64,000 bases of DNA from assembly GCA_947474855.1 (NCBI GenBank), contig CANJKV010000002.1, positions 20,292 through 84,291 on the forward strand, written 5' to 3'. Source of the DNA: Aurantimonadaceae bacterium. Lineage in GTDB: Bacteria; Pseudomonadota; Alphaproteobacteria; Rhizobiales; Rhizobiaceae. Below, one piece after another: positions 12,146 to 56,951 of the stretch. Numbering within the stretch: position 1 is the stretch's first letter; every line of letters starts with the position of its first letter. Position numbers and translations under genes: made by a program. The notes beneath the pieces were generated by a model. That model was not told the DNA's origin. It saw only the letters and a list, made by a program, of their open reading frames with translations, and did not search any database.

Positions 12146-12150
12146 CCACC

Positions 12151-22103: not shown

Positions 22104-22240
22104 CCGAACGTGGAAAGTGTCGACCTCGATACCCGAGGAAAGGCGAGACTTGGCGCCCATATTTCCTTTAGAGGTGGGCAAGTGCAAGGTAGAACTAACA
22201 GACTCATCTGCAAAATTCGAACTCCTCGCGTGAGATTGCG

Positions 22241-22954
22241 ATGATCAATGTAGATCAAATATCCGCAGGCAACAATGTCTACGTCGATGACGCGCAAGGG
22301 AATTCTGTCAAAATCAAGCTCATGGCACTCGCCAGATCGGACAAGTTAAAGAATCCGGTGGCGCTGGCGTGGATGGGAGGACGATCGATACCACCGGATG
22401 CCGACGTGTTTCTATCCGGCTCGCGCAGTTCCATTGGGCAGACGCGCTCCCTAGGAACGCTATCCGAGAGGGCGAAGGACTTCGGCTCCCTCATATGCCT
22501 GATCGAATTCGAGAGGACTGAAAGCGCGACGATTTCCGAGAGGACGGCTGCGGCCAAGGTTTCCCGCGATATAAGTCGTCCTGCGTTCGGTCATGGAAGG
22601 GTCCGCGTCAGCCGCGTCGCCTCTCCCGATGACAAGCCGAAGCGAACGAGAAGAAAGCATAACCAGGAAGCTACGTCCTCCGGGCAAAAGGGGTTCGTTA
22701 CGGGCGACATAGTAAATCCGGTGATTGTCGCCAAGGGAGGAGATGTCCGGCTGGAACGCGCAGCTGTTGTGCGGGGCAAGAGCGGACGAACCTTCGGCCG
22801 GGACGGCGACGGTGGCACCCCCGTCATCTCGACGAAAGGACGGGGTCTGGTCGGGTTCATTGTCGCCAAGGGGCCAGACAGGACCTTGATCCTCCCGGCA
22901 GACGAACTCGTTCGGAAACTCGGCATGCAGTTCCTGACAGTCACAGAGCCTTAG
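22241..22954 (+). CDS. Hypothetical protein with degenerate trypsin-like C-terminal segment
   Basis: 'GRDGDGGTPVISTKGRGLVGFIVAKG' mirrors the GDSGGP...G.vvGi motif of chymotrypsin-fold proteases, but with Gly in place of the nucleophile Ser. It lies 7 nt after the upstream stop. Confidence 0.55.
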   Translation: MINVDQISAGNNVYVDDAQGNSVKIKLMALARSDKLKNPVALAWMGGRSIPPDADVFLSGSRSSIGQTRSLGTLSERAKDFGSLICLIEFERTESATISERTAAAKVSRDISRPAFGHGRVRVSRVASPDDKPKRTRRKHNQEATSSGQKGFVTGDIVNPVIVAKGGDVRLERAAVVRGKSGRTFGRDGDGGTPVISTKGRGLVGFIVAKGPDRTLILPADELVRKLGMQFLTVTEP

Positions 22955-22963
22955 AGCCTCTGA

Positions 22964-23961
22964 TGCTCTGTTGAAACGTTCATGGAGCTTCCTGAGCGAG
23001 GAGCATGAGGTTGTGGGAGATGACGCTTAGAAGGAGTTCGCGGGACTGCGAAGCGGGCTTGCGGGCGGTCAGAGCTGAACCGAGGCGGCGCTTATGCTGG
23101 CTGAAGCCGCTCTCGACGTGCCAACGCTGGTTGTAGAGGGGTTTTGGGAAACGATGACGCATGGCTCGCCGATAGGGCGTTTTGGGCCAGCGCCGCCCCG
23201 TGTTGCGCCGGTTGAGGCGGATGAGCGTGCGGGCAACACCAAACTCCTCGCGGCAGAGGCGGTGGTTGTGCTCGGCGTCGTAGCCGGCATCGCCGAGCAC
23301 AGTGTGCAAAGGGACGTGCTCGGCGGCCTGACACACGGCGGGGATGAAGTCGGGCGAGTCCTGGCTGGGGCCAAGGCCCGGCACGGCTGCGAGGATGAAG
23401 TGGGATCGGGTATGCTGGACCACGGTGAGCTTGGGCCAGAGGCGCTGGCGATGGCCTTTGCGCTTTCGTCCCCGGCCTCGCCGATGACCGAAGTGAGCGC
23501 TGATGTGCCGCGTTTCCAGTCCGGTCGCATCCACCGCGGCCACGGGCGCGAGATCAATCAGGCCAAAGGCGCGGGCTCGTTCGACAGCGGTTGCCTGGAT
23601 GTCACCGAAAGCCCCTTTTTCTCGGCATCCGCCAGAATGCGGCGCGAGGCGTAGGCCAGCGTCGAATAGTGCGGCACCTTGGAAAGGCCGAGGGTTTGTC
23701 GCAGCTCGCTCCACTCGCCCACCAGCGTCACCACGCCCCGGTAGTCCGTGCGTAGGAACTGGCGCAGGACGAGAAGAGCGAAGAGCTGCGGTTGGGTGTA
23801 ATCCTTGCGCGACTATCGGCTGCCGTAGGCCGGCAGCGCGGACCGGCCCGCCATCAAGGCCTCCCGCGCTACTCGAACCGCGGACTTCGAAAGCTGCCGC
23901 ATCGCCGCCTCCCGTCAAAGAGGACGAAACCAGCCAGCCGAGCTGGGGTTTCAACAGAGCA
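22964..23961. mobile_element. IS5-family (IS903-group-like) insertion sequence with 14-bp terminal inverted repeats and 9-bp target duplication
   Basis: The inverted repeats are tgctctgttgaaac (22964-22977) and gtttcaacagagca (23948-23961). They are flanked by direct repeats agcctctga (22955-22963 and 23962-23970). Confidence 0.7.
22980..23902 (-). pseudogene. DDE transposase of the IS at 22964-23961, with an in-frame TAG and a frameshift
   Basis: The N-terminal part 'MRQLSKSAVRVAREALMAGRSALPAYGSR*SRKDYTQPQLFALLVLRQFL...' is in one frame. The DDE part '...HTVLGDAGYDAEHNHRL...YNQRWHVESGFSQHKRRLG...' is in another. Confidence 0.75.
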
Positions 23962-30705: not shown

Positions 30706-31650
30706 TCAGGGCTTCGGCCCCGATGCCCGCATTGGGGCGGCACGCGAAAGGACCTGGAACCAGAATGGAGCGCCGAGGCTGACTGCGAGACCCGTCAGCA
30801 GCCAGCCCAGTAGCTTCAGCAGGCCTTCCTCGCGCAGCAGGGACCAGGCGGCGCTTCCGCATCGCCGGACGATCGCCGCCTCCCCGGACTGGGCCACCAG
30901 ACAGTCGAAGCCGATCGGAAGGCCTTCCGACTGCAGACGGAGAAGGTCGCGCGCCACTGCCGAGGTTTCCGGATCGCTCGCGGCCGGCGCCGGAACCAGG
31001 TCGCCTTCCGCTTGGATCCGGTCGGAGATCTCCTCCGCGGCGGAGCGAAGTCCCGGCGAGTTCCAGAAGCTTCGGACGAGTTGGACGGAATCGACGTTGC
31101 CGAGCGCCGCGACGAGGACGCCCAGCACGAACAGACGCTTCCGGGCGTAAGCCTGGTACCATCCGGAGACGCGGTCCATGCTGGAAGAATACCAGGCCTC
31201 GATGCCCTTGATCATGGCGTCGTAGTCGGCGCCGGCGACGTCGACGATCGGCCGGAGCGCCTGCGCGACCACGGGGTGATCCAGGGAGATGGCCTCGAGC
31301 GACGCCTTGAGCGATGCCGCGTCTCCCGTCCGGGCGTCGGCCACGCCGGCGAGGCGTCCCCGCGCGACGACGACGTCCGCGAGAGCGCGCGCGAAGGATC
31401 CGGGATCCAGGTAGGAAGGCGGGCGTCCCTTGGCCACGTCGTCGCGGTAGAGGGCGCCCACGAGAGGATGCTGCATGACACGCCTGAAGATCGGCTGATC
31501 CGGCAGGAGATGGCGGATGCCTCGCTTCAGGAAGGTACCGCGGGTCCCGCGCCGCGAGGCGATCCATTCGTTCACCCCGCTCACGAAGGTGCAGAGCAGG
31601 AAGTAGACGACGGCCATGGACAGCGCCGTCTCGAGAAGGCGGAAGATCAC
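30706..31650 (-). CDS. Hypothetical integral membrane protein
   Basis: There are hydrophobic helices at the N-terminus (AVVYFLLCTFVSGV), in the middle (LFVLGVLVAALG) and at the C-terminus (LLGWLLTGLAVSLGAPFWF). The start overlaps the upstream stop by 4 nt. Confidence 0.7.
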   Translation of the reverse strand: MIFRLLETALSMAVVYFLLCTFVSGVNEWIASRRGTRGTFLKRGIRHLLPDQPIFRRVMQHPLVGALYRDDVAKGRPPSYLDPGSFARALADVVVARGRLAGVADARTGDAASLKASLEAISLDHPVVAQALRPIVDVAGADYDAMIKGIEAWYSSSMDRVSGWYQAYARKRLFVLGVLVAALGNVDSVQLVRSFWNSPGLRSAAEEISDRIQAEGDLVPAPAASDPETSAVARDLLRLQSEGLPIGFDCLVAQSGEAAIVRRCGSAAWSLLREEGLLKLLGWLLTGLAVSLGAPFWFQVLSRAAPMRASGPKP

Positions 31651-32966
31651 GAAGTCCTCCCCTGGGCGATCCTGAAGTCCCTCGCCGAAGGGATGGGCTG
31701 GCGTCCCACGTCGGCGCGTCCGGCCACGGCGAGGTTGCGGGGCCTGTAGTTCCTATCCACGTCCCACTTGAGCCTTGCCGAAGGATCGACGACCTGGGCG
31801 ATCCCGTCGCTCTCGACGAGCATCCTGCGGTAGTGCCGCCCGCCGGCGAACGCCTTAGCCTTGGCATATATGCCGCCCAGGAACTCGCCGTAGGAGTCTC
31901 GAACGGGAGACAGGTACTCGTTGCCGTCGAGCTTGAACTCCGGCGGCGGACTATCGGCGAAGGGGGGAACCTGACGGTCGCGGCGGAACACCAGTCCGAG
32001 TTCCGCGGCGGCGTTCGCCATCCAGAACAAGGGCGCCTCGCAGAGGAGGTCGTCGTCGTACCCTCCGCCGACGTTGGCATGCGCGCCGGGAAACCAGCGT
32101 TGCTCGACCCGGGTCCATAGCCCCCGATCCGGGGCGGTCCACAACGTGGCTTCGTAGTCGGCGCGGTGTTCGTCGATGGCGACCGCATGATACGCGTTCT
32201 CCACCACGCGCCCGAGCTTGGTGTCGTGGAACTCGAACCTTCCTCGACCGAAGGGCAGGGTCGCGCTTCCGAGCCAGGGAAGCCCAAGTGCGCCGACCGT
32301 GTCCCAGACTCCGACGAAGGCGATCTTGACCGTGAGGGCGGATCGCGCCCGGAACCCGGCCCAATCGGCCTGGTTCCGCGCCGGTCCGTGGGCCGGGTCG
32401 GCCTTTCTCCGGTATAGCTCCCACGCCTCAGCGATCTCGGGAGTGCTTCGGTCCAGAGGACGACCGCGCAACTCGGGCCTGCGCTCCCAGACCTTGTTCC
32501 TGTCGACGATGCCGACGCGGTTGATCATGCCGGCCAGGCTTCTGGCGGTGAAGGCGCCGCGGCTGAAGCCGAAGAGGAAGACGAGATCTCCTCGCGAGAA
32601 CGTCTCCTCCCGTTCGGCCGATGTGGGCTCGTAGGAGTCGTAGGGTCCGGAAGCGTCCGGGCGCGGCGCGCCAGGAAGGTAGGTGTTGACCAGCCAGCAA
32701 TAGCCCTCGAGCACGTTCCGTCCAAGGCCGAGACCGAGGGCTCCTCCGCGGATCCGGGTTCCCCATTCGGTTCCGACGCCCTGGTCGTAGAAGGTCAGCT
32801 GATCGGGGCATTGCGTGTCGACCGACGCCAGGACCCTATACAGACGCGACACGTTCGTCTGGCTTTCGAGACTGTTCCAGGTTCCGTCGAAGCAGAGCGC
32901 AAGGCGGCGGCAGCCGTCCGGCAGGGGAATGTAGTCGAGCTTGGCCTTCTCCGCGGTCATGGTCAT
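31647..32966 (-). CDS. DUF2235 (T6SS Tle1-like) alpha/beta hydrolase
   Basis: 'RLALCFDGTWNS', 'YDQGVGT' and 'FLFGFSRGAFTARSLAGMI' (the GxSxG nucleophile elbow) are present. The start is set at the ATG at 32966 (MTMTAEKAK). Confidence 0.85.
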   Translation of the reverse strand: MTMTAEKAKLDYIPLPDGCRRLALCFDGTWNSLESQTNVSRLYRVLASVDTQCPDQLTFYDQGVGTEWGTRIRGGALGLGLGRNVLEGYCWLVNTYLPGAPRPDASGPYDSYEPTSAEREETFSRGDLVFLFGFSRGAFTARSLAGMINRVGIVDRNKVWERRPELRGRPLDRSTPEIAEAWELYRRKADPAHGPARNQADWAGFRARSALTVKIAFVGVWDTVGALGLPWLGSATLPFGRGRFEFHDTKLGRVVENAYHAVAIDEHRADYEATLWTAPDRGLWTRVEQRWFPGAHANVGGGYDDDLLCEAPLFWMANAAAELGLVFRRDRQVPPFADSPPPEFKLDGNEYLSPVRDSYGEFLGGIYAKAKAFAGGRHYRRMLVESDGIAQVVDPSARLKWDVDRNYRPRNLAVAGRADVGRQPIPSARDFRIAQGRTS

Positions 32967-33222
32967 GGCCGATCGATCGATGTTCGAGGATTGGAAAGCG
33001 GCATCGGAGCGGAGAGAACAGCCGCGGCGAAGGCCACGGCCGCCGCGGGATGGAGACAGGGACCTCGACGTCGCAACTCCGATCGAAGCCTTCCGGTCGT
33101 CTCGTCGCTCGAACGTAAGACGGGACGGAAAGTCCGCGATGGTCGCGCGGTCAGGGGGCTCCGACGTCCGGGCTCGCGCCGGGAGCGAGGCGAGAAGCTC
33201 GTCGCCCCTGCACCGCCTGGCT

Positions 33223-34074
33223 TCAGCAGAAATCCAGGTATCCGAGCAAGCCGGACATCCTGACCTTTCGCGTCGATCGCCGGAACACGCCGTAGCCGTC
33301 GCGGGAACCACCGTTGTTCGTGTTGCCCTCGATCGTGACGATCCTGTCGCCCTGGACCTTCTGGACGATCCCGGCGTGTCCCTTGCCGCCTCCCGTGTCG
33401 AAGAGAAAGACCATGCCCGGCTTGATCGCGGCGGGCTGCGCCTCGGGAGGCGTCAGGATCCTGGCGGTACCTCTGTTCCTCATCTGCCACAAGGCGTGGA
33501 CCCCGGCGGTCCTGGGCAAGGGAGACTCGTCGCCGAGAACCTTGGCCGCTTCCAGGAACACCCACTGGATGAAGCAGATGCACCAGGGAAAGCTGCCGTT
33601 GCCCGGATTGAGGCCCGACGCCCTGATGTATTCGTCGACTTCCGGTCCCCGGTTCGATCCCCTGGGCTCCTCCATCACGCCGATCTGCGACGCGGCGACG
33701 GAAACCACAAGGGAACGCAGGTCCACCTCCCGGTCGACCACCGCCTCGTCGCCAGCCGTATCGCCGAAGAGGGATCCCCAGGTCTTTCGCCCGACCTGAC
33801 CGTCGACCTCGAGCTCCTCGCCCTGGGCGTCCAGGTGCCTGGCCTGGAAGAGGCGGACGGCATTCTCCGTCGCTTCCCCGAAGTCGCCGTCCACGACGAG
33901 GTTCGAGTTCATGGCCTGGTTCAGGCGAGCCTGGATCGCCCTCACCGCATCCGAGTCCATCTGGCCACGGGCGATGATCGCTCCGGGATAGGGCCGAGGT
34001 CGACGTGGCGCCGACCGTTGCGGATCAAGACTGACGACTACGCCGGGCTTGGCATCGACTGCGATGTTGGACAT
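33223..34074 (-). CDS. Peptidoglycan-binding domain + CHAP amidase/peptidase
   Basis: 'AVRAIQARLN...VVDGDFGEATENAVRLFQ...VDGQVGRKTW' is PG_binding_1-like. 'GSFPWCICFIQWV...KGHAGIVQKV...IEGNTN' is the CHAP Cys/His pattern. The ATG at 34074 is preceded by GGAGGAG. Confidence 0.85.
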   Translation of the reverse strand: MSNIAVDAKPGVVVSLDPQRSAPRRPRPYPGAIIARGQMDSDAVRAIQARLNQAMNSNLVVDGDFGEATENAVRLFQARHLDAQGEELEVDGQVGRKTWGSLFGDTAGDEAVVDREVDLRSLVVSVAASQIGVMEEPRGSNRGPEVDEYIRASGLNPGNGSFPWCICFIQWVFLEAAKVLGDESPLPRTAGVHALWQMRNRGTARILTPPEAQPAAIKPGMVFLFDTGGGKGHAGIVQKVQGDRIVTIEGNTNNGGSRDGYGVFRRSTRKVRMSGLLGYLDFC

Positions 34075-35305
34075 TGTCCGCTCCTCCGTTCGAACGTGAC
34101 CTGGCTTCCCTAACGAGACCTCGCGCTTGGCGTCTCGACCTGCATCCTCGGCCGCCAGGCGGCCGCAAGCACACGGTCCCGCATACCGAACACGCGACTC
34201 CGACTGCGGCAGCGTCCCTCGAACACGGGCCGACCTGCCGATCGAAAATCGTCGACCCGTCAAGACACCTCGAGCGCGAGCCTTGAGAACGCCAGGCTCG
34301 AAGCAAGCAGTCCAAGTGCCGGCATCTTGGAACCACAGCCTGCGTGACAGATGCGTGACGTAGGGTCATGCAAGCATCTCGGTGAACGATCCCTGCCCTT
34401 CGACAGTCGGCCTCCTTGGCCGATGACAATCCCGAGGGACGACGAAGCGGCACCGTCGTCTCGACTCGCCTTCCGCACGATCGCCAGACGTCGACTACGT
34501 TCGGCACGCGCGTCGCCGCTCGCGCCGGACCGCGGCACGGACGTTCTTGCGGCGATCGAACGAAGCCTGCCGATCGCGGATGGAGCGCCGCGCATCCGAC
34601 GGGGATCGCGTCGCTTCGGTCGGACGGCCTCCCGCACGCAAGGTCCCGAGGCGTCGACCTTGCCGGTAGATATCGGCCTAGGCCCTGCCGCAGCCTGGCT
34701 TCGATCGACGGGTCGAGCGTTCGACGGGATCGTTTCACGGCGACCGGCCGCTTGGCCGATCGACGGCCGGCGCCCGTCACGTCCGCGTCACGTGTCATCG
34801 CGGATATCGCCCCCGAGGGTGTCATGGCCTTTCGCAGGCGCAGGAGAGGCATGGTCGATCACGACGGATCATCGATCGCTGGGGGGAGGCCCAGCCACGA
34901 TGCCGGCATCGGGAGAGTGATGGGGACGGTCACGTTTCACGACCAGGCGGTCGACGCTCGCACCGTGGCTTGTTGGCTGGAAGTCGCCCCGGGACCGCCG
35001 TCGTCGAGCCGTTCGGCCCGGATCGGCTTCCTGGCGGTCCGTGGCCTCGCGACGCCGTATCGAGCACACCGTCCAGGAAGATCTCCGTTCAGGTCCGAAG
35101 GCCGACGCGGCTTCCTCCATGCGTCGCCGGAGGCCGGCGTCGCACCGCCCCAACGGTCGAAGCGGCACGAAGGCCCCACTGCCAGGGAAAGCCAGGGACC
35201 GGTTCGGGCGCAACTTGCCTCTCCTGCGATGGGCGTTGTATTGCGCCCGGGCCTCGTCGCATCCCGCCCGAGACTTCGGTCGGACGCCCTTGCGAGGCAG
35301 ACGCA

Positions 35306-36445
35306 ATGAGGTCGACGATGAACAAGCTCGGCCTCACGCTGATCTCCGGCATCATGGGCTGGAACGATCCGAACGTCGCTGCCCGGGAGTACGCGTGGCT
35401 CTTGCTGATGGCGGCGGTCAAGTACGATGGCTACAGCGACTTCCGCGCCGGATCGCGCTTCGTCGAGAGCTTGGCCACGTGGTTGAAGCAATTCGATCCT
35501 GGCGACAGGCAGACGGCCTACGACTTCGTCAAGCACAGGCTGGTCTACATCTCCGCCGCGGAGATGCAGAGGATCATCGAGGCGTTCGTTCCCGAGACGG
35601 TCACGCCCCGGCTCCGCCGCCTAGCCGCGGCGCAGGTCGGCATCGCCCCGGACCAGGTCTGGGGGAGCGCCGCGGGAGCGACCGCCTTCCGGCGACTCCT
35701 TCGCCGTTCCCTGTTCGTCGGGCTAAGCGACGGCAGCCGCGTCGATATCCTGCGGCGGGCGAACGCAGGTCTGCTGTCGCAGGAACAGATCGTCCCCATG
35801 ATGAACATCGACGCAAGGAAATGGGACGAGCTCGGCAAGGAGCTGCGCGACATCCAGGGTCCCGACGCCCGCTTCGAGCACGTCTACCTCATCGACGACT
35901 TCACGGCGTCGGGCACCACGTTCATCCGGCAGGTGAACGGCGACTGGAAGGGCAAGCTCAAGAAGTTCAACGACCTCGTCGCGACGGCTCGGGACGCCGC
36001 ACGTGCGTCGGGCGCCGGTTTCGCCATCGCGGAGGACTACACGGTGCACATCCATCACCATGTCTCGACCACGCAAGCGAGGGCGGCGCTGTTGCGCCGC
36101 GTGGAACAGGCCCGGGCGGAGTGGCCCGAACGCGACTTCGGAGAGGTCACGGTCAGCGAGGGGCTTCTTCTACCGGGAACGATGCGTCTGCGGCAATCGA
36201 CCGACGCCGCCATGCTCGCGCTCTGCGACAAGTACTACGATCACGAGCTCTACGAGCGCCTGAAGAAGCATTGCGACGAGGCGGGACAGACCGACATGAA
36301 GCGAGGCTATGCCAACTGCGCCCTTCCCCTCGTGCTCGAACACAACACCCCCAACAACAGCATCCCGCTGCTCTGGGCGGAGACCGGCGGCAAGCAAGGA
36401 CATGCCATGACGCCGCTGTTTCGCCGGCGGGACCGGCACGGCTGA
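35306..36445 (+). CDS. Phosphoribosyltransferase-domain protein with helical N-terminal extension
   Basis: The PRPP-binding loop is 'FEHVYLIDDFTASGTTFIRQ'. An alternative ATG at 35318 has a better GAGG spacing. The upstream part of the 491-aa track ORF is shadow. Confidence 0.8.
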   Translation: MRSTMNKLGLTLISGIMGWNDPNVAAREYAWLLLMAAVKYDGYSDFRAGSRFVESLATWLKQFDPGDRQTAYDFVKHRLVYISAAEMQRIIEAFVPETVTPRLRRLAAAQVGIAPDQVWGSAAGATAFRRLLRRSLFVGLSDGSRVDILRRANAGLLSQEQIVPMMNIDARKWDELGKELRDIQGPDARFEHVYLIDDFTASGTTFIRQVNGDWKGKLKKFNDLVATARDAARASGAGFAIAEDYTVHIHHHVSTTQARAALLRRVEQARAEWPERDFGEVTVSEGLLLPGTMRLRQSTDAAMLALCDKYYDHELYERLKKHCDEAGQTDMKRGYANCALPLVLEHNTPNNSIPLLWAETGGKQGHAMTPLFRRRDRHG

Positions 36446-36449
36446 GTCC

Positions 36450-38360
36450 ATGGCCAATCCCTTCCTTCAACGGGCGACGGAATACATCCGCGACGAGACG
36501 GCCTTCCTGGCCGTCGTCAGCCCGCAGCCGCTGACCACCTTCCTCACGAAGCACCCGCGCAGGGACGACCTGTTCCGGCTGCCCGTCCGCATCCTCGGAT
36601 CGCCGGGCAGCGGCAAGACGATGCTCGCCACGCTGGCGGAGTTCCGCCTCGTCGAGGCGATCCTGCGCGACCAGTCGAACGACGCGAACCGCGAGCTCGC
36701 CGCCGCGCTGGCCGATGCAGGCTTCCTTCGCGATGGGCGCCCCCGCATCGCCGCGGTGCGGGTTCCCATGGAGTCCGAATACCGCGACTTCTGGGAATTG
36801 CCCTACGAGGACGCGGTCAAGACGAAGCTGGCGATGTGGCTCGTCCAGGCGCGCACGATGCTGGCCCTCCTGCGGGGTCTCACCGCCAACGGCACACGCG
36901 ACCTCGACGACATCCGCTTCGTCGCGCGCGACGCCTCGGAAGCTCAGCTCGAGCAGATCGGCGGACTGAGCGCGGCCGGCATCCGCGATCGGGCACTCCA
37001 GGTCCAGCGCGCGATCTACTCCATCGGGGCGAGCCTCCTGCCGCCCAGGATCGAGGATCTACCGCCCGAGGCGACGGAACCCTACCAGCCCTTCGACAGC
37101 ATACGCGAGATCGAGATCATCTGGAACGGCGAACCTATCGAGGTGTCTCCGCTGGTGATGCTCGACGACGTCCATGCTCTTCATCCGGATCAGTTCGAAC
37201 AGATGTTCGGCGCGATGGCCCGCCGGGAAATCAGGTTCGGGCGATGGATGATGATGCGGCTCGACGCGTTGAGCCCGAAGGCGGTCTTCCGGTCGGCCGA
37301 GGCACTCGAGACGCACAATCTCAAGCCGGATCGCGACTTCATCAACGTCTTCATGCAGCGTCAGGCGGACCGGGCGAGCGAGAGGCGCCAGTTCCGGACG
37401 ATCGCGAACGACATGGCGAACAGATACCTGCCGCTCGTCAAGGCTCTGCGCGACCGGAACCAGACGCGGTTCGGAAGGCTGGTTCCCGACGAGCCGCCTC
37501 GGCTGACGGACGCGCGACGCAAGCAGCTTCGGTCGACCGTCGAGAAGGATCAGCGCAGGCTCGAGATCGGCCGAGGACGCCGGGAAGCCATCGAGCAGCT
37601 CGTATCCGCCTACTTCGCCGGCAAGGAGGGAGGCGACAAGGAGCCGGAAGTGGAGCTGGCGATGTGCCGGATCCTCATGCATCGGTATGCCAAGCGGGTA
37701 GCCCATCTCGAGCCGACGCTCTTCGAGGACATGGATCCCGATCCGAAGGTCCCCTTGAAGGCGGATGCCGACGTGGCCGATGCCGCCCGCCTTTTCCTGA
37801 ACGAGGAATTCGGACGCCCCTTCCACTACGGCATGAACGACCTGTGCGATGCCAGCAACGAGAACGCCGAGCTGTTCCTGCAGCTCTGCGGCGCCCTCGT
37901 GGCACGGATGGAGGCGCGGGTGGTGCAGGGCAAGTCGCCGGCCCTGCCGGCCGCGGTTCAGCAGACCGTTTTGAAGGAAACGGCGGCGGCGATCATGAAC
38001 GGCTGGTCTTTCCCGTTCGCCAAGCGGATCAGGACGCTGATCGCAGGCATCGGACAAGATTGCCGCGCGACCTCCCTGGTGCCGAACGCCCGCCTGGGGG
38101 CCGGAGCGAACGCCATCGGCGTTCCGCAAGCCGAGATCCGCGACCTCCTGGCTTCGAAGGACGACCTCGCGCTCGTCCTGAAGTACGCCGTTGCCTATGG
38201 CGCACTCGACGTTCAGATGAACTATGGCCAGGGCAACAAGATCTGGTGCCTGATCGAGTTGAGTGGCCTCGCCTGCCTCGCTCATGGCCTCACCTTCAAG
38301 AGAAGCGGATTCCTCGAGCGCGATCTTTCCTACGTGCGCGAATTGGTTGGACTGACGTGA
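36450..38360 (+). CDS. P-loop NTPase (636 aa), family not recognised
   Basis: Walker A is 'RILGSPGSGKTMLA' and the Walker-B-like stretch is 'PLVMLDDVHAL'. It starts 4 nt after the PRTase stop. Confidence 0.8.
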   Translation: MANPFLQRATEYIRDETAFLAVVSPQPLTTFLTKHPRRDDLFRLPVRILGSPGSGKTMLATLAEFRLVEAILRDQSNDANRELAAALADAGFLRDGRPRIAAVRVPMESEYRDFWELPYEDAVKTKLAMWLVQARTMLALLRGLTANGTRDLDDIRFVARDASEAQLEQIGGLSAAGIRDRALQVQRAIYSIGASLLPPRIEDLPPEATEPYQPFDSIREIEIIWNGEPIEVSPLVMLDDVHALHPDQFEQMFGAMARREIRFGRWMMMRLDALSPKAVFRSAEALETHNLKPDRDFINVFMQRQADRASERRQFRTIANDMANRYLPLVKALRDRNQTRFGRLVPDEPPRLTDARRKQLRSTVEKDQRRLEIGRGRREAIEQLVSAYFAGKEGGDKEPEVELAMCRILMHRYAKRVAHLEPTLFEDMDPDPKVPLKADADVADAARLFLNEEFGRPFHYGMNDLCDASNENAELFLQLCGALVARMEARVVQGKSPALPAAVQQTVLKETAAAIMNGWSFPFAKRIRTLIAGIGQDCRATSLVPNARLGAGANAIGVPQAEIRDLLASKDDLALVLKYAVAYGALDVQMNYGQGNKIWCLIELSGLACLAHGLTFKRSGFLERDLSYVRELVGLT

Positions 38361-39526
38361 CGCGGACGCATTGGGACAACTGCATCGCCCACTTCGACCA
38401 GGCCGTCGAGACGTTCGTCGGCGAATACTTCGGGAACAAGGACAGGAGATGCCTCCTAGTCGCCGCGGCAGGTTTCGATCCGAGATCCCGTCGCATCGCC
38501 GAACTTCTAGCGGATCAGATGGGCGATCGGCTCCAGGCCTTCTTCGTGCGCGAAGAGCGCGGACGGCCGGATACCGGCCTCGCCGCCGCGGCCGACGCGA
38601 ACGAGACGAGGCTGCGGTCCCTGGTTCCAGACTGCAAGGTCGTGCGCATCGACGTGTTCGGCGACGACGGTGCTCCGGTCGGAGGACCGCGGATGGCAAG
38701 GCTCGTCTCGGATCTTGTCCTGCCCCCGGAAATCACGGACGTGGTGCTCGACATGACGGCGTTCTCCGTCGGAATCGCGTTTCCGGCAGCCAGGATCCTG
38801 CTCGAAGGTTGCGAGAGGAACGGTCGACGTTCCTTCCACGTCATGGTCTCCTCCAATCCGGAGCTGGAAAGCAGGATCGTGGCCGAGCATGGCGGCCGCC
38901 CCATGGCGGTCCGAGGCTTCGCAGGAACGGACATCCTGTCCGAAACGCTCGACGTCGCCAGGATGTGGATCCCGCAGCTCGCTCCCGGCAACGCCTCGGT
39001 CTCGGCCCTGGACCAGATCGGCCGGTCCCTGGGTCAGTGCTACAAGATCTGTCCCGCCCTCCCCTTCCCGTCGCGGGATCCGAGGCGGTCCGACGCCCTC
39101 GTCGCCGAGTACGGGAAAGCCCTGGTCGACGAGTGGCAGGTCGATCCACGCGATCTCGTCCATCTCTCGGAACGCAATCCGCTCGACAGCTACCGCACGC
39201 TCTCGACGCTTGCCCGCCGCTACCGGAAGGCGGTCGAGAACGTCTTCGCTCCGGTCATCGTCGTTTCGCCGATGGGTGGCAGGGTCATGGCGATCGGCGC
39301 GTTCATGGCGGCCATCGAGCACGGGCTGGCGGTGAGCTACGTCGAGACGGTGAGATACGAGTTCGACGCGTCCGGACCGTTCGACGACGAGCCGCCGGAT
39401 ACCTTGCTGCATGTTCTGCTGTCGGGACCGGCATACGGCGACTACGACGACGCGATCGACGAGCTGACGGCGGCTGGTCCGCCCTGGGCGTCGGGGAACG
39501 GAACGGCCGCCGGGGAAAGGACTTGA
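38357..39526 (+). CDS. Hypothetical protein (389 aa), Rossmann-like; possible ligand-sensor domain
   Basis: The GTG start overlaps the NTPase stop (GTGA at 38357-38360). 'RCLLVAAAGFDPRS' and 'DVVLDMTAFSVGIAF' have a beta-strand/loop layout. This is the last third of an 896-aa track ORF whose first two-thirds is shadow. Confidence 0.7.
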   Translation: MTRTHWDNCIAHFDQAVETFVGEYFGNKDRRCLLVAAAGFDPRSRRIAELLADQMGDRLQAFFVREERGRPDTGLAAAADANETRLRSLVPDCKVVRIDVFGDDGAPVGGPRMARLVSDLVLPPEITDVVLDMTAFSVGIAFPAARILLEGCERNGRRSFHVMVSSNPELESRIVAEHGGRPMAVRGFAGTDILSETLDVARMWIPQLAPGNASVSALDQIGRSLGQCYKICPALPFPSRDPRRSDALVAEYGKALVDEWQVDPRDLVHLSERNPLDSYRTLSTLARRYRKAVENVFAPVIVVSPMGGRVMAIGAFMAAIEHGLAVSYVETVRYEFDASGPFDDEPPDTLLHVLLSGPAYGDYDDAIDELTAAGPPWASGNGTAAGERT

Positions 39527-39548
39527 CCATCGGCGGAACGAGCACGAG

Positions 39549-41522
39549 GTGGAGATGACGACCTTCTCGGAGAAGCTCTCCGGGTTGCCGGCGACCGTCG
39601 CGCTGGCCGCCGGAGCGGACCACTCGGACCTCGCGGCCGCCTTCCGCGACTCCGCGGGGCGGCCCGTGCTCGCCGTCGGCTCCGGCGGCTCGGCCATCGT
39701 CGCGGAGTACCTCGCGCGCTGCCGCGAGACGCTACGGTCGGGCTCGACGCGCACGGTCACGCCGATGGAGCTGGTGCTCGGCACCGAGGACCTGACCGGA
39801 GCGGACGTGTGGCTGTTCAGCGCCGGAGCCGAGAATCCCGACCTGCGCGCCGCGGTCCATGCCGCGCAGGCGCGTCGCGCCCGACGCATCCGTCTCGTGA
39901 CCAGGCGAGTCGATGCAGCCGAGGCCCTGGGACTGGCGCGCAGACCGCACGCATCCGTCCACGTCGTTCCGGTGGCGGTCCAGAAGGACGGCTTCCTCGC
40001 GACGCATTCGCTGGTGGGCTCGGTCGCCGCGCTTCTGCTGGCCTCCGACGTCGTCTCGGACGATCCCATCGGCGGGGTGGCCGCGGCGTTCGCGGCCGCG
40101 GTCGACGCGTCGGTCGCGGAAAGGCGTCGCCTCGAACTCCACGAGACCTTCTCGAGCCTGGATCGGAACGACACCCTGCTGGTCCTGTTCGACCCGCAGC
40201 TGTCGTGCGTCGCGACGCTGATCGAGACCTCGGCGTGGGAGGCGGCGATCTGTTCGGTGCAACGCGTCGACTTCCGCAACTTCGCCCACGGCCGCCACAC
40301 CTGGATCCATCATCGATCGGACCGGACCATGGTGCTGGCGTTGACCGGCCACGAGACCCGCGACACGTGGCGATCGATCGACGACCTTCTTCCGGCGGGA
40401 GTGCGCCGGACGTCGATGGACCTCGGCGGCGGCGGACGCCTCGACAACGCGAAGGCGATCGTGGAAGGCCTCGCGGTCGTCGAGGCCTTGGGTCTGGCAG
40501 CGAGGATCGATCCCGGAAGACCCGGCATCGGGGAGTTCGGCCGCTCCATCTACGAGGACGACGCCCTTCTCGGGCTCTCGCGCAGGCTCGACGGAGCCAC
40601 TCGCCAGAAGCGCACCGCCTCGCTCGCCCGGGACGAGCCCGCCACCGACCAGACCGGGATCCACGACGCCGGAGCTGCCCGGCTGGAACGCCTCGCCGAA
40701 GCCGCGGTGGGAGGCGTCGTGTTCGACTACGACGGCACGCTGGTCTCGACGCCCGACCGCTTCGATCCGCCCCGGGCGGCGCTGGTCGCGGAACTCGTCA
40801 GGCTACACGGACTGGGAGTGCGCCTGGCCGTGGCGACGGGGCGCGGCGGGTCGGCGGGGGAGGCGTTGCGGGAGGTCCTGCCGACCGAAGCCCACCCCGA
40901 CGTGCTGATCGGCTACTACAACGGCGCCTACCTGCGACCGCTCGCGGTCGACATCCGCTCGGCGCCGGCGCCCGCCGACCCGGCGATCGCGGAGACCGCG
41001 GGCTGGCTAGCAGCGCGGCCGGACCTCTTCAGGCGTGCATTCGAGCCGGCACGGCACCGGATGCAGATCACCATCGAGCGCGAGGACCTCGCCGACTGGG
41101 AGTCGTTCGGCCGGGAGATCGACGCCTGCGGGAGCGTCCGCTCGGGCTCCGTCAGGGTGACGCGATCCGGGCACAGCGTCGACATCGTCCTCGCCGCCGC
41201 CTCGAAGCTCGCGGTGGTGGAAGCGATCGCCGCGCAGCTTCCCGCCGGCTCGACCGTCCTGCGGATCGGCGACAGCGGCTCGCGACAAGGCAACGACAAC
41301 GAACTGCTCTCCCACGCCTACGGCATCAGCGTCGGAGAGGTCTGCGGCCGTCGCGATGGCTGCTGGTCCCTTTTCGGGGAGGAACTCACCGGCCCCGAGG
41401 CGGTTCTCAGGCTCCTTAAAGCCCTGCGTCCAGATGCGGCCGGCGTCGTGCGTGTGGATATCGTCTCGCTGGGCATCGACAGGACGCACGAATCGGGTAC
41501 GAATGGCGAACATGGCACCTGA
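39549..41522 (+). CDS. SIS (phosphosugar isomerase/binding) domain fused to HAD-IIB-like phosphatase
   Basis: The SIS part shows 'VLAVGSGGSAIVAEYLA' and 'DVWLFSAGAENPDLRAAVHAA...IRLVT'. The HAD part shows 'VVFDYDGTLVS' (motif I), 'LAVATGRG' and 'SKLAVV...LRIGDSGSRQGNDNELL' (motifs III/IV). Confidence 0.8.
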   Translation: MEMTTFSEKLSGLPATVALAAGADHSDLAAAFRDSAGRPVLAVGSGGSAIVAEYLARCRETLRSGSTRTVTPMELVLGTEDLTGADVWLFSAGAENPDLRAAVHAAQARRARRIRLVTRRVDAAEALGLARRPHASVHVVPVAVQKDGFLATHSLVGSVAALLLASDVVSDDPIGGVAAAFAAAVDASVAERRRLELHETFSSLDRNDTLLVLFDPQLSCVATLIETSAWEAAICSVQRVDFRNFAHGRHTWIHHRSDRTMVLALTGHETRDTWRSIDDLLPAGVRRTSMDLGGGGRLDNAKAIVEGLAVVEALGLAARIDPGRPGIGEFGRSIYEDDALLGLSRRLDGATRQKRTASLARDEPATDQTGIHDAGAARLERLAEAAVGGVVFDYDGTLVSTPDRFDPPRAALVAELVRLHGLGVRLAVATGRGGSAGEALREVLPTEAHPDVLIGYYNGAYLRPLAVDIRSAPAPADPAIAETAGWLAARPDLFRRAFEPARHRMQITIEREDLADWESFGREIDACGSVRSGSVRVTRSGHSVDIVLAAASKLAVVEAIAAQLPAGSTVLRIGDSGSRQGNDNELLSHAYGISVGEVCGRRDGCWSLFGEELTGPEAVLRLLKALRPDAAGVVRVDIVSLGIDRTHESGTNGEHGT

Positions 41523-42432
41523 TCGATCCGTCTCCTTCGACGTCGTCGGCACCGGCTTCACGGTGCTCGACCGCATCTACGCGGACGGCGACCTCGCCGG
41601 CGAGGCACTGGGCGGATCGTGCGGCAACGTGCTGCTCTCGCTGGCCATGCTTCAGCGGCAGGTGGCGCCGGTCCTCCTGCTCGGCATGGATCCGACGGGC
41701 GAACGGCTGGTGGGAGAATTCAGGCAAGCCGGGGCGGATGTGCGATACATCAATCGCCGTGGCGACGTCAGGTCGCCGGTGCTGACCCAGGATCTCGACA
41801 CGAGCTCGGGGCGACACAGCTTCAGCTTCGTCTGCCGCGAGACCCAGGTCCGCTTTCCGGCATATCAACCCATCCGCGACGACGACGTCGCGGCCGCCGA
41901 ACATGCCCTCAAAGCCTGCTCCGTCTTCTATGCGGACCGGCTTTCGCCGGCCGTGCTGCGTGCCATGGGACAAGCCCGATCGGCGGGGGCGATCGTGTAT
42001 TTCGAGCCGTCCGTGGATGACGACCCCCTGTTCGACGACGCCCTTCAGCTAGCGACGATCCTGAAATACTCGTCCGATCGCCTAGGTGACGAAAAGCGCG
42101 AAGCGATCGCGCAAAGCGGCGTCATCTCGATCGTCACCCATGGCGCAGAGGGACTAGAGATCCGGCGGAAGAGCAGCGGCTTGCGATGCGAAGCGGCGCC
42201 GGCAGGCCGCGTGACCGACGCTTGCGGGTCGGGCGACATGGTAAGTGTCGGGCTGATCGACTGGCTGCTGTCCCACGCCCGGGGCCGCCGCGACCTGTCT
42301 CCGGCAGACGTGCGGGAGGGCGTAAGGGCCGGCCAGCGCCTCGCCGCGGCCAATTGTGCCTTTGCCGGCGCGCGAGGACTGTTCCATCATCGGGGAGCGG
42401 CGCACGCCCGCCGTATCCTGTCGTCCCACTGA
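41511..42432 (+). CDS. PfkB-family sugar/nucleoside kinase
   Basis: 'VVGTGFTVLDRIY...LGGSCGNV' is PfkB signature 1-like and 'VTDACGSGDMVSVGL' is the D-x-x-G-x-G-D signature 2. It overlaps the upstream gene by 12 nt. Confidence 0.85.
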
Positions 42433-42441
42433 CACGCGCCG

Positions 42442-42936
42442 TCACTCGGCGGCGAGAAGCTCGCGGACAGGCACTCCGGCGCCTCCGAGTTCGCTTCGGA
42501 GCTCCATGAGCAACGTGCCGAGCATGTTGCGCCCCGTTCCGTTGACCTCACCCCAAAGTCGGTTGACCTCGTTATCGACGGTGGCCGCCTCCACCAGACG
42601 GGCTTCTCCCGTGGAGAGCAGCAGATCCCGCAGGTCACCGTGCTGCTCGAACTTGGCGTGCAGCACGCGCCGCATGCGGTCGAACTTCGTACGCGACCAG
42701 CCGGGCGCGACGTCCCAGTAATAGAGTCCATGCGCCGCCATGGCGAGCAGCGCAGGCGTGGGGGCGCTCATCAGCCATGACCTGACCGCAGGCTTTCGAG
42801 CTTTTCCCGCCTGATAGGCATGCTCGCTGGTCGCGAAGATTTCTCCCTCGAATTCGATAGGCCGGCGATAGAGGTTGCTGAACGCACCGTAGGGCTTCTC
42901 GCTAGCGCGATAGAAGCGGATCTCGTCTACCGGCAT
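42442..42936 (-). CDS. NADAR (YbiA/DUF1768) family protein
   Basis: 'FYRASEKPYGAFSNLYRRPIEFEGEIFATSEHAYQAGK...' and 'LVEAATVDNEVNRLWG' are typical NADAR blocks. It is convergent with the PfkB gene; the two stops are 9 nt apart. Confidence 0.85.
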   Translation of the reverse strand: MPVDEIRFYRASEKPYGAFSNLYRRPIEFEGEIFATSEHAYQAGKARKPAVRSWLMSAPTPALLAMAAHGLYYWDVAPGWSRTKFDRMRRVLHAKFEQHGDLRDLLLSTGEARLVEAATVDNEVNRLWGEVNGTGRNMLGTLLMELRSELGGAGVPVRELLAAE

Positions 42937-42985
42937 GGCTCGCTCCGACTTGCAAACTCTCTTGCGATGCTACATGCATATTTGC

Positions 42986-43333
42986 ATGAAATCAACGGCG
43001 AACGCCCTTGCGGAGATCAAGGCTCGGTTAGCCTCCGCATACAAGGAGGGAGGCCTCTCCCAGGCCGAGATAGCTCGCTTGGCAGGGGTAGACCCAAGTC
43101 AGGTGAGCCGCATCTGCCGCGGGCAATTTAAGAGAGCCAGTCCCAGTGTCATGCAAATTTGCAATGTTCTTGGAATCCGTGGCGACATCCTTGTCGAGCC
43201 CGGCACGGAGTCGGGTGGTTCCTGGGCACGGATGCTGGCGAGCCTACGCGAGCTATGGGACGAAACGCCGGAAGGCGCCGATAGCATCCTCCGGATGCTA
43301 GATGCCGTCGCTGCGTTGCGACGCGCTCAGTGA
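42986..43333 (+). CDS. XRE-type HTH regulator
   Basis: 'LSQAEIARLAGVDPSQVSRICRGQ' is an HTH. It is divergent from NADAR. The start is set at the ATG at 42986 (MKSTANAL). Confidence 0.7.
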   Translation: MKSTANALAEIKARLASAYKEGGLSQAEIARLAGVDPSQVSRICRGQFKRASPSVMQICNVLGIRGDILVEPGTESGGSWARMLASLRELWDETPEGADSILRMLDAVAALRRAQ

Positions 43334-45781: not shown

Positions 45782-46200
45782 CTAGGCAACGGTCTCTTTG
45801 AGGGCTATGAGGAAGTAGTCGGGCTTTCGGTTGTAGCAGGTGGCAAGGCCGCGCATCTGCCTGATGCGGCTGAAGAAGCGCTCGACGAGGTTGCGCTGGC
45901 AGTAGACCCAGCGGCTGAAGGTGAAGATGCCCTTGCTCGTCGAGCGCGGCGGGGTGTTGGCCCAGGTGCCCCGCGCAGCCAAGAAGGACCGGATGCCGTC
46001 GGTGTCGTAGGCCTTGTCCGCGATCACGGTTCCGCCGGGCGCAACAGTGTCGAGGAGCTTGGTTGCGACTGGTGCGTCGCCGACTCGACCGGCGGTGAGT
46101 TAGAGAAGCAGCGGCCGACCTGCGGCGTCCACCAGGGCGTGGATCTTGGTGGTCGGGCCGCCTCTTGAACGTCCCATGCAAGAATCGGCCGCCCCCTTCT
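45782..46200 (-). pseudogene. IS5-family (IS427-group) transposase orfB fragment, 5'-truncated with an internal stop
   Basis: 'GRSRGGPTTKIHALVDAAGRPLLL*LTAGRVGDAPVATKLLD...VIADKAYDTDGIRSFL...NLVERFFSRIRQMRGLATCYNRKPDYF' is recognisable. No orfA lies upstream. Confidence 0.7.
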
Positions 46201-54897: not shown

Positions 54898-55346
54898 ATG
54901 ACGGCTTCTCTCACTGCTGCGGTCACAGGGTCCTCACGCGACAGGGCGCGCTGACGAGGATGGGCATCGAACGCACAAGCGGGGCCGAAAGCCGCTGCGC
55001 CGCCCGATGTCCGTTTTCGTCGCCCCTGGCAAGACGACGATCGGTTTTGTCTCTGGCTAACGATACCTAGCTCGAGAGCGCGAAAGTTCCACGGCTAAGG
55101 GGAGCCGGACGGCCAACTAGTTGCTCGCCCTGGCCTCTTCGGTTGCAGTTCGGCACCCCTCGCCCGACCGGGCTCAGCTTGTTCCTGCCTGCCGGCTGCG
55201 CGGTATCGGGCCACGCCGGCTATCCATTGGAGCACCAGCATATGGCCGGTTGCCGAACAGAGCCTTGGCTGCAAGGAAGCGCTTCCGCGACGGAGCCGGC
55301 TCGGTCGAGCCAGCCGGGCTTCGAGCAGTCGAGAGGTCGGTGCGGC

Positions 55347-55589
55347 ATGTACGTTCGTCGGTTCGAGCTTGCCCATCAGCGCGACAGCCCGGGTTCGGGT
55401 CCCGTCAACCTGGACCTCCGTGTCCTCAAGTTGATCGCCAACGGAGAGAGCTACGACGAGGCCGCCAGCATCCTCCAATTGGCGCCGGCTCGCATCCACG
55501 AAGCGATGGCTCGCATGCGCGAGGATTTCGGCGCTCACACCAACGAGCATGCCGTGGCCATCACGATCCGCTCCGGTCTCCTCGGCTAG
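55347..55589 (+). CDS. Small LuxR-type HTH protein
   Basis: 'DLRVLKLIANGESYDEAASILQLAPARIHEAMARMREDFGAHTNEHAVAITIRSGLL' is a LuxR/GerE C-terminal HTH. The start choice is uncertain. Confidence 0.55.
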   Translation: MYVRRFELAHQRDSPGSGPVNLDLRVLKLIANGESYDEAASILQLAPARIHEAMARMREDFGAHTNEHAVAITIRSGLLG

Positions 55590-55678
55590 ACGGCAGCCAC
55601 CACGCACGTCGCGGACAGGTGGAGCCAAGTCCCGCCGAGGTTTCGGATGGTGTCCTCTCCGATCGTTCGGCTTTCTAA

Positions 55679-55915: not shown

Positions 55916-55964
55916 TCGAAGAAATCGTTTGCTGAAGGCGCCTCAGCCCACGCAATTGGCATCG

Positions 55965-56486: not shown

Positions 56487-56594
56487 TTTTCACACCGGAT
56501 CAGAACAGCGATCCAGTCGATGTACTACAAACCTCGTGAGGATCCCGTTGAGTTGGCAGATCAAAATACCCTGAAAGATGTGGCGGATTTCTAA

Positions 56595-56935: not shown

Positions 56936-56951
56936 GCTTTGGAGCGCGGGT

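Follow-up and report, generated by a model that had tools for sequence, protein, structure and literature searches.

What kind of system is encoded by the closely packed genes at positions 35306 to 42432 of a 64,000-nucleotide stretch of an Aurantimonadaceae bacterium genome (contig CANJKV010000002.1; hereafter the window), and is this run of genes a unit that exists in other organisms? A reading made from the letters alone (the sequence-only reading) had proposed an operon of five genes, encoding a phosphoribosyltransferase (PRTase), a P-loop nucleoside triphosphatase (NTPase), a Rossmann-like protein of no recognized family, a fusion of SIS and HAD domains (SIS::HAD), and a PfkB-family kinase, which we designate g1 to g5. 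The five co-directional open reading frames (ORFs) on the + strand were confirmed, an independent gene caller agrees with them in public contigs carrying the same sequence, and all the motifs quoted in that reading were found in the translations. Hundreds of homologues of each gene, together with a conserved synteny, indicate that the five are not chance ORFs. The real unit, as our study identified it, is a cassette of seven genes of about 8 kb (~35.3-43.3 kb): the NADAR gene and the helix-turn-helix (HTH) gene that follow the five, which had been taken for mere neighbors, are both conserved parts of it. These limits come from the nucleotide similarity between species, which starts at the start of g1 and stops at the NADAR/HTH genes, the flanks being unrelated between species. 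We tentatively favor the reading, with a confidence that falls slightly short of even, that this cassette is a self-contained and horizontally mobile conflict system, of the defense or the addiction type, and not a biosynthetic or lipopolysaccharide (LPS) pathway.

Our synteny scan, which used one genome per species, identified 71 loci, almost all of them alphaproteobacterial, and the seven-gene order recurs in nearly all of these where the contig is long enough. In the main order, the genes for the PRTase, the ATPase (g2), the CARF protein (g3), the SIS::HAD fusion, and the PfkB kinase lie on one strand, the NADAR gene lies on the other, and the HTH gene follows. Homologues of the CARF6-family protein encoded by g3, with 24-40 % identity, are carried by plasmids of Agrobacterium, Shinella, Sulfitobacter, Bradyrhizobium, Paraburkholderia, and Burkholderia gladioli, and they are also present in the actinobacteria Rathayibacter and Paenarthrobacter. 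All five families are kept in seven of the eight distant loci, in at least five different gene orders, and the B. gladioli locus has four of the families and NADAR, with no PfkB gene within 9 kb. The PRTase, ATPase, and CARF genes are contiguous, in this order, in every arrangement, and the SIS::HAD and PfkB genes shift around the triplet. The view of the five genes as a co-inherited functional unit is thus borne out, both by the synteny in nearly all the loci and by distant homologues with a shuffled order and the same content. The sequence-only reading had also looked to co-occurrence outside this genome as a test of its proposal, and the five families do recur in the 71 loci, in the distant variants, and on plasmids.

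Among 72,556 plasmids, the CARF gene was identified in 19 records, g1 in 21, and g4 in 20, and g1 and g4 accompany the CARF gene in all 19 of its records. A phage origin of the cassette was rejected, as neither the 50,697 phage records nor IMG/VR contained a homologue. One locus from a metagenome-assembled genome of Pseudomonadota (L029, 4454-13077) has the NADAR and PfkB genes divergent upstream of the PRTase-ATPase-CARF triplet and the SIS::HAD gene convergent downstream; its SIS::HAD and PfkB proteins are ~31 % identical to those of the window, against 52-59 % for the triplet, which suggests that the sugar branch may have been exchanged between clades. In three other loci (L070, on an Aliirhizobium terrae plasmid, L072, and L057), the tblastn coverage of g1, g3, and g4 is fragmentary (42-55 %), and under one match in L070 the annotation lists several short 'hypothetical protein' features; these cassettes appear to be decaying into pseudogenes.

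The genes that surround the cassette in different species were also classified. In Brucella pseudogrignonensis, it lies between Tn7-like TniQ/TniB/transposase genes and a cluster encoding a TIR protein that binds cyclic nucleoside monophosphates (cNMPs), an E2 protein, and a cyclase; in Sphingomonas kyeonggiensis, it is located inside an integrative and conjugative element (ICE) and adjoins a HEPN gene; in Erythrobacter, it adjoins an integrase gene and TniB; and in Rathayibacter, it adjoins a SIR2 gene. The flank scan covered 143 flank proteins of ~31 loci, whose commonest Pfam families are HEPN, type IV secretion system (T4SS) coupling protein, resolvase/recombinase, Polbeta NTase, AbiH, TniB, RES, DUF4238, and integrase, and PADLOC matches in these flanks include type I restriction-modification, Pycsar cyclase, E2, Wadjet, MADS, and AbiH. 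Across the loci, the neighbors include T4SS genes of ICEs, HEPN-MNT, and parts of Pycsar and of cyclic-oligonucleotide-based antiphage signaling systems (CBASS). No glycosyltransferase, LPS, capsule, or transporter family is among the 25 commonest Pfam families of the flank proteins. The location in an LPS or capsule locus that would have spoken against the earlier proposal was not found, and the loci sit in accessory or mobile DNA near defense and toxin-antitoxin genes. The earlier description of the setting as accessory DNA therefore stands, but its label of insertion-sequence-rich is overstated, given that one weak DDE fragment is found within 10 kb of the cassette. As a side observation, the Brucella pseudogrignonensis neighbors (L075/L076, 15000-21100) comprise a cNMP-binding and CAP12/PCTIR TIR protein, an E2-like protein, and a guanylate-cyclase-like gene, called by PADLOC as PycC and E2, which make up an adjacent cyclic-nucleotide defense system in the Tn7-like element. 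The G+C content of the window's cassette is host-like (0.65-0.71).

Families and catalytic motifs of g1 to g5

The catalytic parts of the cassette proteins are invariant or nearly so across 65-75 homologues, some of them only 24-40 % identical. The near-invariant positions comprise the DD..SG of the loop that binds phosphoribosyl pyrophosphate (PRPP), Walker A GxPGxGKT and Walker B DD, the SIS motif GSGGS, the HAD motifs DxDGT, TGRG, K, and GD...GND, and the PfkB motifs GG and DxxGxGD. Since these motifs are conserved down to such low identities, all six enzymes of the cassette are probably active.

The first gene, g1 (35306..36445, + strand), encodes a PRTase of 379 amino acids (aa), with the gene-caller start at 35318 as an alternative, and ends 4 nt before g2, as previously read. 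It belongs to Pfam PF24390 (PRTase-CE), with E = 2.4e-22 and 80.5 bits against a 27-bit cut-off, and it matches the PRTase_III-A profiles of PADLOC (best E = 2e-15), where this PRTase is labeled as a type III-A CRISPR accessory, whereas the cassette has no CRISPR-cas gene. Besides a conserved N-terminal region, the protein has a type I PRTase core, in which the PRPP loop reads VYLIDDFTASGTTF; the DD and SG of this loop and a C-terminal EHNTPNN..RRDRHG are invariant in 70 homologues. Sequence and profile searches of solved structures gave no relative of g1, ShosT included, at E <= 5.

A relative of PRTase-CE that is 23 % identical to g1 is encoded on the Streptomyces scopuliridis plasmid NZ_CP109092.1 (97466-98437). 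The operon around it also encodes an inositol-monophosphatase-family protein, a phytanoyl-CoA dioxygenase, Pgi, a protein of the phosphoenolpyruvate (PEP) mutase/isocitrate lyase family, and an FkbM methyltransferase. This operon resembles a phosphonate or natural-product cluster, and it has no CARF or ATPase gene. It bears on the alternative that the cassette synthesizes a nucleoside-like or amino-sugar secondary metabolite, such as an antibiotic or an antiviral nucleotide analogue, with the CARF protein and the ATPase as regulators and NADAR as self-resistance. A PRTase, a HAD phosphatase, a kinase, and an isomerase would make a plausible toolkit for nucleoside analogues, PRTase+HAD modules in Ter clusters were predicted by Anantharaman 2012, as far as that work is cited in PMC5512222, and the distant Streptomyces homologue does have a PEP mutase, a dioxygenase, and a methyltransferase as partners. 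We nevertheless consider this alternative improbable: no exporter or further tailoring enzyme is conserved with the cassette, which differs from natural-product clusters in its compactness and in being identical across many orders, and there are no Ter genes nearby, no Ter-family domain (TerD, TerB, TelA, or similar) being present among the top flank families or the annotated neighbors.

The second gene, g2 (36450..38360, +), encodes a P-loop NTPase of 636 aa with Walker A GSPGSGKT and Walker B VMLDD, both invariant among homologues. It is important to note that g2 itself falls below the threshold for Pfam PF24389 (ORC-CDC6-like; E = 0.0057, 15.9 bits); 14 of 25 orthologues match this model at E <= 1e-3, and distant members of the family, tied to g2 by profile searches with E = 1e-31 to 1e-204, match all of its 571 positions with 68-101 bits (cut-off 27). 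The C-terminal half of the protein is helical with beta-hairpins. Its AlphaFold 2 model is poor, with a predicted local distance difference test (pLDDT) of 73 that drops below 50 in the P-loop region, and no significant relative was found in the PDB by single sequence or by profile. The first 11 residues (36450-36482) contain a peptide, MANPF..RATE, that is invariant in 25 orthologues and lies in a region of pLDDT < 40 in AlphaFold; it might serve to dock a partner protein.

The third gene, g3 (38357..39526, +; 389 aa, GTG start), shares with g2 the GTGA overlap described before. The protein that had been left as a Rossmann-like unknown is a member of the CARF6 family: it matches the PADLOC profile PDLC01910 'CARF6--CARF_CARF_CARF', labeled as triple-CARF, over its full length with E = 8.4e-94 (8e-94 as rounded), and its residues ~250-340 give weaker matches to Csx1 and to the CARF1, 3, 4, and 8 profiles. 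Neither Pfam nor NCBIfam has a family for this stand-alone protein. Clustering of the CARF6-type family at 50 % identity gives 703 representatives, and the 150 of them that were listed have at most ~390 aa, so that none of these is fused to another domain. No sequence relative was found in the PDB by single sequence or profile, and no internal repeat was detected when the three CARF domains were sought with hhalign. The protein is presumed to be a ligand sensor.

The fourth gene, g4 (39555..41522, +), encodes the SIS::HAD fusion of 655 aa, or 657 aa from a GTG at 39549; the gap of 22 nt reported after g3 holds with the GTG start and becomes 28 nt with the start at 39555. The fifth, g5 (41503..42432, +), encodes the PfkB kinase of 309 aa. 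The overlap between g4 and g5 is present, but its length is 20 nt (ATG at 41503) or 11 nt (ATG at 41512) and not 12 nt, which would imply an out-of-frame start at 41511 and is a trivial slip of the sequence-only reading. In g4, a double-SIS domain (~aa 1-362) that resembles isomerases or deglycases of sugar-amine/ketose phosphates is fused to a Cof-type HAD-IIB phosphatase (~aa 385-640), and the AlphaFold 2 model of the fusion is of high quality (pLDDT 90, predicted template modeling score 0.85). The best 50 Foldseek matches of the N-terminal half in the PDB are the GlmS isomerase domain, NagB-II, AgaS-like proteins, and the FraB deglycase; the top matches have E = 2e-11 to 2e-8 and a target template modeling score of ~0.7, with E = 2e-8 for FraB. 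All these enzymes interconvert or cleave amino-sugar or ketosamine phosphates. By sequence or profile, the SIS half has no significant relative in the PDB, and comparisons of g4 and g5 with E. coli FrlB (hhalign), FrlD (BLASTP), and GlmS gave none that is significant. The invariant residues of g4 are GSGGS, E231, HGRH 247-250, DYDGT, TGRG, K553, and GD..GND; E231 and H247-G248 presumably correspond to GlmS E488 and H504, which have the same 16-residue spacing. Profile searches with the HAD half retrieved Cof-type sugar phosphatases, and NCBIfam Cof/HAD-IIB families match it as well. The kinase g5 belongs to Pfam PF00294 (PfkB, ribokinase-like; E = 2.6e-18), its closest solved structures and NCBIfam models are fructokinases, and its GG motif and catalytic DxxGxGD motif are conserved.

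These assignments bear on two further alternatives. The first is the analogy that the sequence-only reading had drawn with the enzyme triad of nucleotide-activated heptose synthesis, that is, a variant heptose or sugar pathway of the GmhA/HldE/GmhB kind that would feed LPS, capsule, or another glycan. The broad superfamilies SIS, PfkB, and HAD do coincide, but the analogy fails at each member of the triad and is effectively refuted: the SIS half is of the double-SIS GlmS/NagB-II type and not the single-SIS type of GmhA, the HAD half is Cof-type IIB and not GmhB, and the kinase scores 22 bits against TIGR02198 (rfaE_dom_I), whose cut-off is 345 bits. Moreover, the loci have no nucleotidyltransferase or glycosyltransferase, as judged from the cassette genes and from the 25 commonest Pfam families of the flank proteins.

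The second alternative is a catabolic or salvage island for an exogenous glycated amine (Amadori or opine-like) or an unusual nucleoside, in which the kinase and a double-SIS deglycase would work as in the frl/fra loci, the phosphatase, the PRTase, and NADAR would serve base/ribose salvage, and the CARF protein and the ATPase would be transcriptional or allosteric regulators. The presence of the FraB deglycase and NagB-II among the Foldseek matches of g4 is in line with this proposal, as are the PfkB kinase that adjoins the double-SIS protein (compare FrlD/FrlB in the E. coli layout), the name 'FrlB-like / Cof-like HAD' that g4 homologues carry in JGI annotations, and the frequency of the cassette on rhizobial and Agrobacterium plasmids. 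We regard it as quite unlikely all the same, for four reasons. First, no transporter or GntR/LacI-type regulator is conserved with the cassette or found among the top flank families. Second, the comparisons with FrlB, FrlD, and GlmS mentioned above are not significant. Third, PRTase-CE, ORC-CDC6-like, and CARF6 are otherwise catalogued in defense or CRISPR-accessory libraries. Fourth, the flanks differ in every species.

The NADAR gene and its divergent repressor

The NADAR gene (42442..42936, - strand; 164 aa) is convergent with g5. Its product matches Pfam PF08719 (E = 4e-25) and the structure of E. coli YbiA (PDB 2b3w, E = 8e-22), and it scores 86 bits against NCBIfam TIGR02464, 'riboflavin intermediates N-glycosidase' (cut-off 73.7), a family of N-glycosidases of phosphoribosylamino-pyrimidines. 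It is the most conserved protein of the cassette, with 67-88 % identity in nearly all 71 genome loci; the position of its gene is fixed in the main clade, and both position and orientation vary in the distant variants.

The HTH gene (42986..43333, +) encodes 115 aa from the ATG at 42986. The protein is of the Xre/RstR type, according to Pfam HTH_3 (E = 5e-8) and a weak match to the NCBIfam RstR family. Its orthologues are called as proteins of 108-114 aa that start ~49 bp from the NADAR start, and the start context GCATGAA is conserved; on the basis of these gene calls and this context, the start was placed at 42986, which leaves a 49-bp divergent control region between the NADAR and HTH genes, and the longer HTH ORF from 42935 is probably not used. 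The aligned intergenic regions revealed in the control region (42951..42986) two operator-like palindromes with the consensus TGCAAATTTGCA, located 24 bp apart. Operator 1 (42951-42962) is degenerate in the window, and operator 2 (42975-42986, TGCATATTTGCA) overlaps the ATG of the HTH gene. Of 61 loci, 48 have the palindrome at least once and 31 have it twice, at positions that are fixed relative to the NADAR start; in the window taken alone, the palindrome is not significant (2 matches vs 0.54 expected). A third copy lies inside the HTH gene (43152-43163); in 38 pairs, its distance downstream of operator 2 is 177 bp, and the peptide that it encodes is (V/M/L)Q(I/V)C. Its conservation may be driven by the protein, as a conserved QIC peptide, or it may be an operator involved in looping. 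Direct control of the five-gene operon by the HTH protein through this palindrome was rejected, the palindrome being upstream of g1 in only one locus. As judged from this distribution of sites, the HTH repressor appears to control its own gene and NADAR and not the five-gene operon. A promoter/terminator scan gave nothing above chance.

This arrangement is relevant to the proposal that the cassette is primarily a toxin-antitoxin or addiction module that stabilizes plasmids, ICEs, and transposons. The PRTase, with the ATPase and the CARF protein as its regulators, would be the toxin, and NADAR, kept on by the HTH circuit, would be the antitoxin; the sugar enzymes would detoxify side products, and phage defense would be secondary or absent. 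The proposal agrees with the presence of the cassette on mobile elements, with the precedents of NADAR/YbiA proteins as proven antitoxins (PMC11125620) and of ShosT as a PRTase toxin (PMC11961720), with NADAR being the most conserved gene and having its own repressor-controlled promoter, and with the decay of some copies (L070, L072). On the other hand, several variants have no nearby NADAR, seven genes far exceed the needs of an addiction module, and the neighboring defense genes suit immunity equally well. We consider it somewhat unlikely as a separate explanation; it overlaps strongly with the conflict system that we favor and is not exclusive of it.

A possible phosphoribosyl-based conflict system

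How might the seven proteins work together in a conflict system? Our observations concern family memberships, intact catalytic motifs, strict co-occurrence, shuffled gene order, mobile carriage, defense-island neighbors, and conserved operators. What we infer are the functional roles, the nature of acceptor and ligand, the direction in which the sugar branch runs, and a phage-defense phenotype, and these would fit together as follows. The CARF6 protein would bind a small ligand as the sensor, and the ORC/Cdc6-like ATPase would act as a nucleotide-dependent switch or as an assembly platform. Type I PRTases use PRPP to form a 5-phosphoribosyl-N bond, and the PRTase of the cassette would be the output enzyme, which would transfer the 5-phosphoribosyl group from PRPP onto an amino or ring nitrogen of an acceptor, the candidates being bases, nucleotides, and bases that are part of a nucleic acid. 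The reaction would also drain PRPP, like the PRTase toxin ShosT. N-ribosylamines are prone to Amadori rearrangement, which yields ketosamine phosphates, and these are the substrate class of double-SIS enzymes of the GlmS, NagB-II, FrlB, and FraB types; in the frl/fra loci, such enzymes act together with a PfkB kinase. The SIS::HAD and PfkB enzymes could accordingly phosphorylate, isomerize or deglycate, and dephosphorylate a sugar-amine or ketosamine phosphate, which might be the ligand of the CARF protein or the Amadori-rearranged product of the PRTase, so that this branch would make, edit, or remove the sugar-amine ligand or product. NADAR would be the natural eraser of the PRTase product, given that YbiA/NADAR enzymes break ribosyl-N bonds to exocyclic amines; by reversing this product, it would serve as an antidote or an off-switch, and it would be transcribed from its own promoter under the Xre-type repressor bound at the conserved palindromes.

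Three precedents from the literature are relevant to these roles. NADAR/YbiA proteins have been described as antitoxins that cleave ribosyl-guanine-N2 bonds, for example in guanine-N2-ADP-ribose (PMC11125620); the defense toxin ShosT is a PRTase whose action requires PRPP binding and the DD motif (PMC11961720, PMC12961424); and retrons probably employ PRTases as effectors (PMC9122126).

It is important to consider that several points weigh against a conflict system. There is no signal-generating cyclase (Cas10, CD-NTase, or SMODS) among the seven cassette proteins, so that the usual logic of CARF systems is incomplete, and the only cyclase among the flank families shown is the Pycsar cyclase, in one flank protein. 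It would seem futile for one system to have both a kinase and a phosphatase, unless the two have different substrates or target different atoms. Several distant variants have no NADAR nearby, and it is therefore not an essential antitoxin everywhere. The Streptomyces cluster with a distant PRTase-CE hints at ordinary small-molecule chemistry. At the level of the individual proteins, the CARF assignment of g3 is a matter of profile labels, with neither an internal repeat nor a PDB relative, and the fold of g2 is not confirmed, as the Foldseek search with its poor model gave only non-significant ORC/Cdc6 and NB-ARC matches. Finally, the flanks in the window, which comprise methyl-accepting chemotaxis protein, TetR/MFS/RND, Tle1-like, and CHAP genes, are no classical defense island.

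A more specific form of the conflict system, which we find doubtful, is an immune pathway that makes and senses its own messenger, not a cyclic nucleotide but a phosphoribosylamine derived from PRPP or the ketosamine phosphate that Amadori rearrangement makes of it. Synthesis or editing of this messenger would fall to the PRTase together with the kinase, the double-SIS enzyme, and the HAD phosphatase, its detection to the triple-CARF protein, and its removal to NADAR; if so, bacterial immunity would have a signal of a new chemical class, and CARF domains a new class of ligand. Should the cassette be a defense system in the broader sense, it would couple a sensor of the CARF type to an effector that depends on PRPP, and in place of a cyclic-oligonucleotide synthase it would have three sugar-phosphate enzymes and a ribosyl-N hydrolase; its signaling or effector chemistry (phosphoribosylation, ketosamine phosphates) would be new to bacterial immunity. 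It would also be the first genetic handle on three matters: the targets of PRTase effectors (for example ShosT and the retron PRTases), a PRTase as natural partner of the YbiA branch of NADAR, which is widespread, and the function of a CARF family that is not linked to CRISPR. With its compact 8 kb, the cassette is easily cloned, and it is conserved.

Neighboring genes in the window and comparison with known systems

Other features of the window were recorded. On the - strand at 30706-34263, there are genes for a 314-aa protein, a Tle1-like (DUF2235) phospholipase, and a PG_binding+CHAP peptidoglycan hydrolase, which look like an interbacterial toxin/effector cluster. The sequence-only reading had cited lysis-type genes (the CHAP hydrolase and the Tle1-like lipase) as context for the operon; they turned out to be unrelated neighbors, and a linkage of the cassette to the CHAP, Tle1-like, and 314-aa genes was rejected, as they are absent from all other loci. 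Farther upstream, at ~28.3-30.7 kb, a YcaO gene and a BTAD-type regulator were identified (gene calls of locus L001). On the other side, a short and weak DDE transposase fragment (45782-46027, -) lies between a chemoreceptor gene and the TetR/MFS/RND genes. Three stretches (9000-14000, 19000-23000, and 55000-58000) have a G+C content of 0.59-0.61 against a background of 0.66-0.70 and are probably horizontally acquired islands.

Special attention was given to whether the cassette corresponds to a system that has already been described. In agreement with the sequence-only reading, which recognized no named defense system in it, it matches none in PADLOC v2 or NCBIfam r20, and the latter has no model for g1, g2, or g3. 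Its description as undescribed holds only in part: no library names the system, but Pfam and the CARF census behind PADLOC already hold computational entries for the PRTase-CE / ORC-CDC6-like / CARF6 triplet. The accession numbers PF24389 and PF24390 follow directly on each other, and PF24389 covers the 635-aa protein from end to end; the two look as if they had been modeled on this type of operon. In the full-text literature that was covered, which does not extend to Burroughs 2015 and Makarova 2020, there is no description of the cassette or of its SIS::HAD, PfkB, NADAR, and HTH partners.

With ShosTA, the cassette would share a PRPP-binding PRTase as the toxic output of a mobile defense system; ShosT cannot do without its acidic DD motif, and what it modifies is not known (PMC11961720, PMC12961424). 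However, g1 has no detectable sequence similarity to the solved ShosT structures and no PADLOC match to ShosT or ShosA, it lacks an N-terminal pyrophosphatase domain, and the cassette has no DprA-like gene, whereas ShosA is DprA-like; in the cassette, the PRTase is accompanied by an ATPase, a CARF protein, sugar enzymes, and NADAR. The likeness to DarT1-NADAR and YarT-YbiA consists of a YbiA/NADAR hydrolase genetically coupled to an enzyme that forms ribosyl-N bonds, with NADAR removing the modification (PMC11125620). Their transferase, in contrast, is an NAD+-dependent ADP-ribosyltransferase (ART), whereas that of the cassette is a PRPP-dependent PRTase, with no ART domain found in any cassette protein by Pfam and PADLOC profiles, and the NADAR gene of the cassette is transcribed convergently under its own repressor.

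The frl/fra loci resemble the cassette in pairing a double-SIS fold with a PfkB kinase; the differences are the fusion of g4 to a HAD phosphatase, the lack of a transporter or a GntR regulator, and the mobile-element setting. RtcR combines CARF, AAA+, and HTH, and the likeness of the cassette to CARF signaling of the type III CRISPR or CBASS style and to RtcR lies in the coupling of a presumed CARF-family sensor to an ATPase and an enzymatic output. The cassette differs from them in having no cyclic-oligonucleotide synthase, in distributing sensor, ATPase, and effector over separate proteins, and in having sugar-phosphate enzymes and not ring nucleases as its accessory enzymes. The closest correspondence is with the gene set behind PF24390, PF24389, and PDLC01910: g1 and g3 give strong matches, and the full length of PF24389 is matched by relatives of g2, although none of these libraries defines a system from the triplet. 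The cassette is real, widespread, mobile, and conserved, and, as a candidate conflict system of the CARF/PRTase type, it is unusual in its sugar-phosphate and NADAR component.

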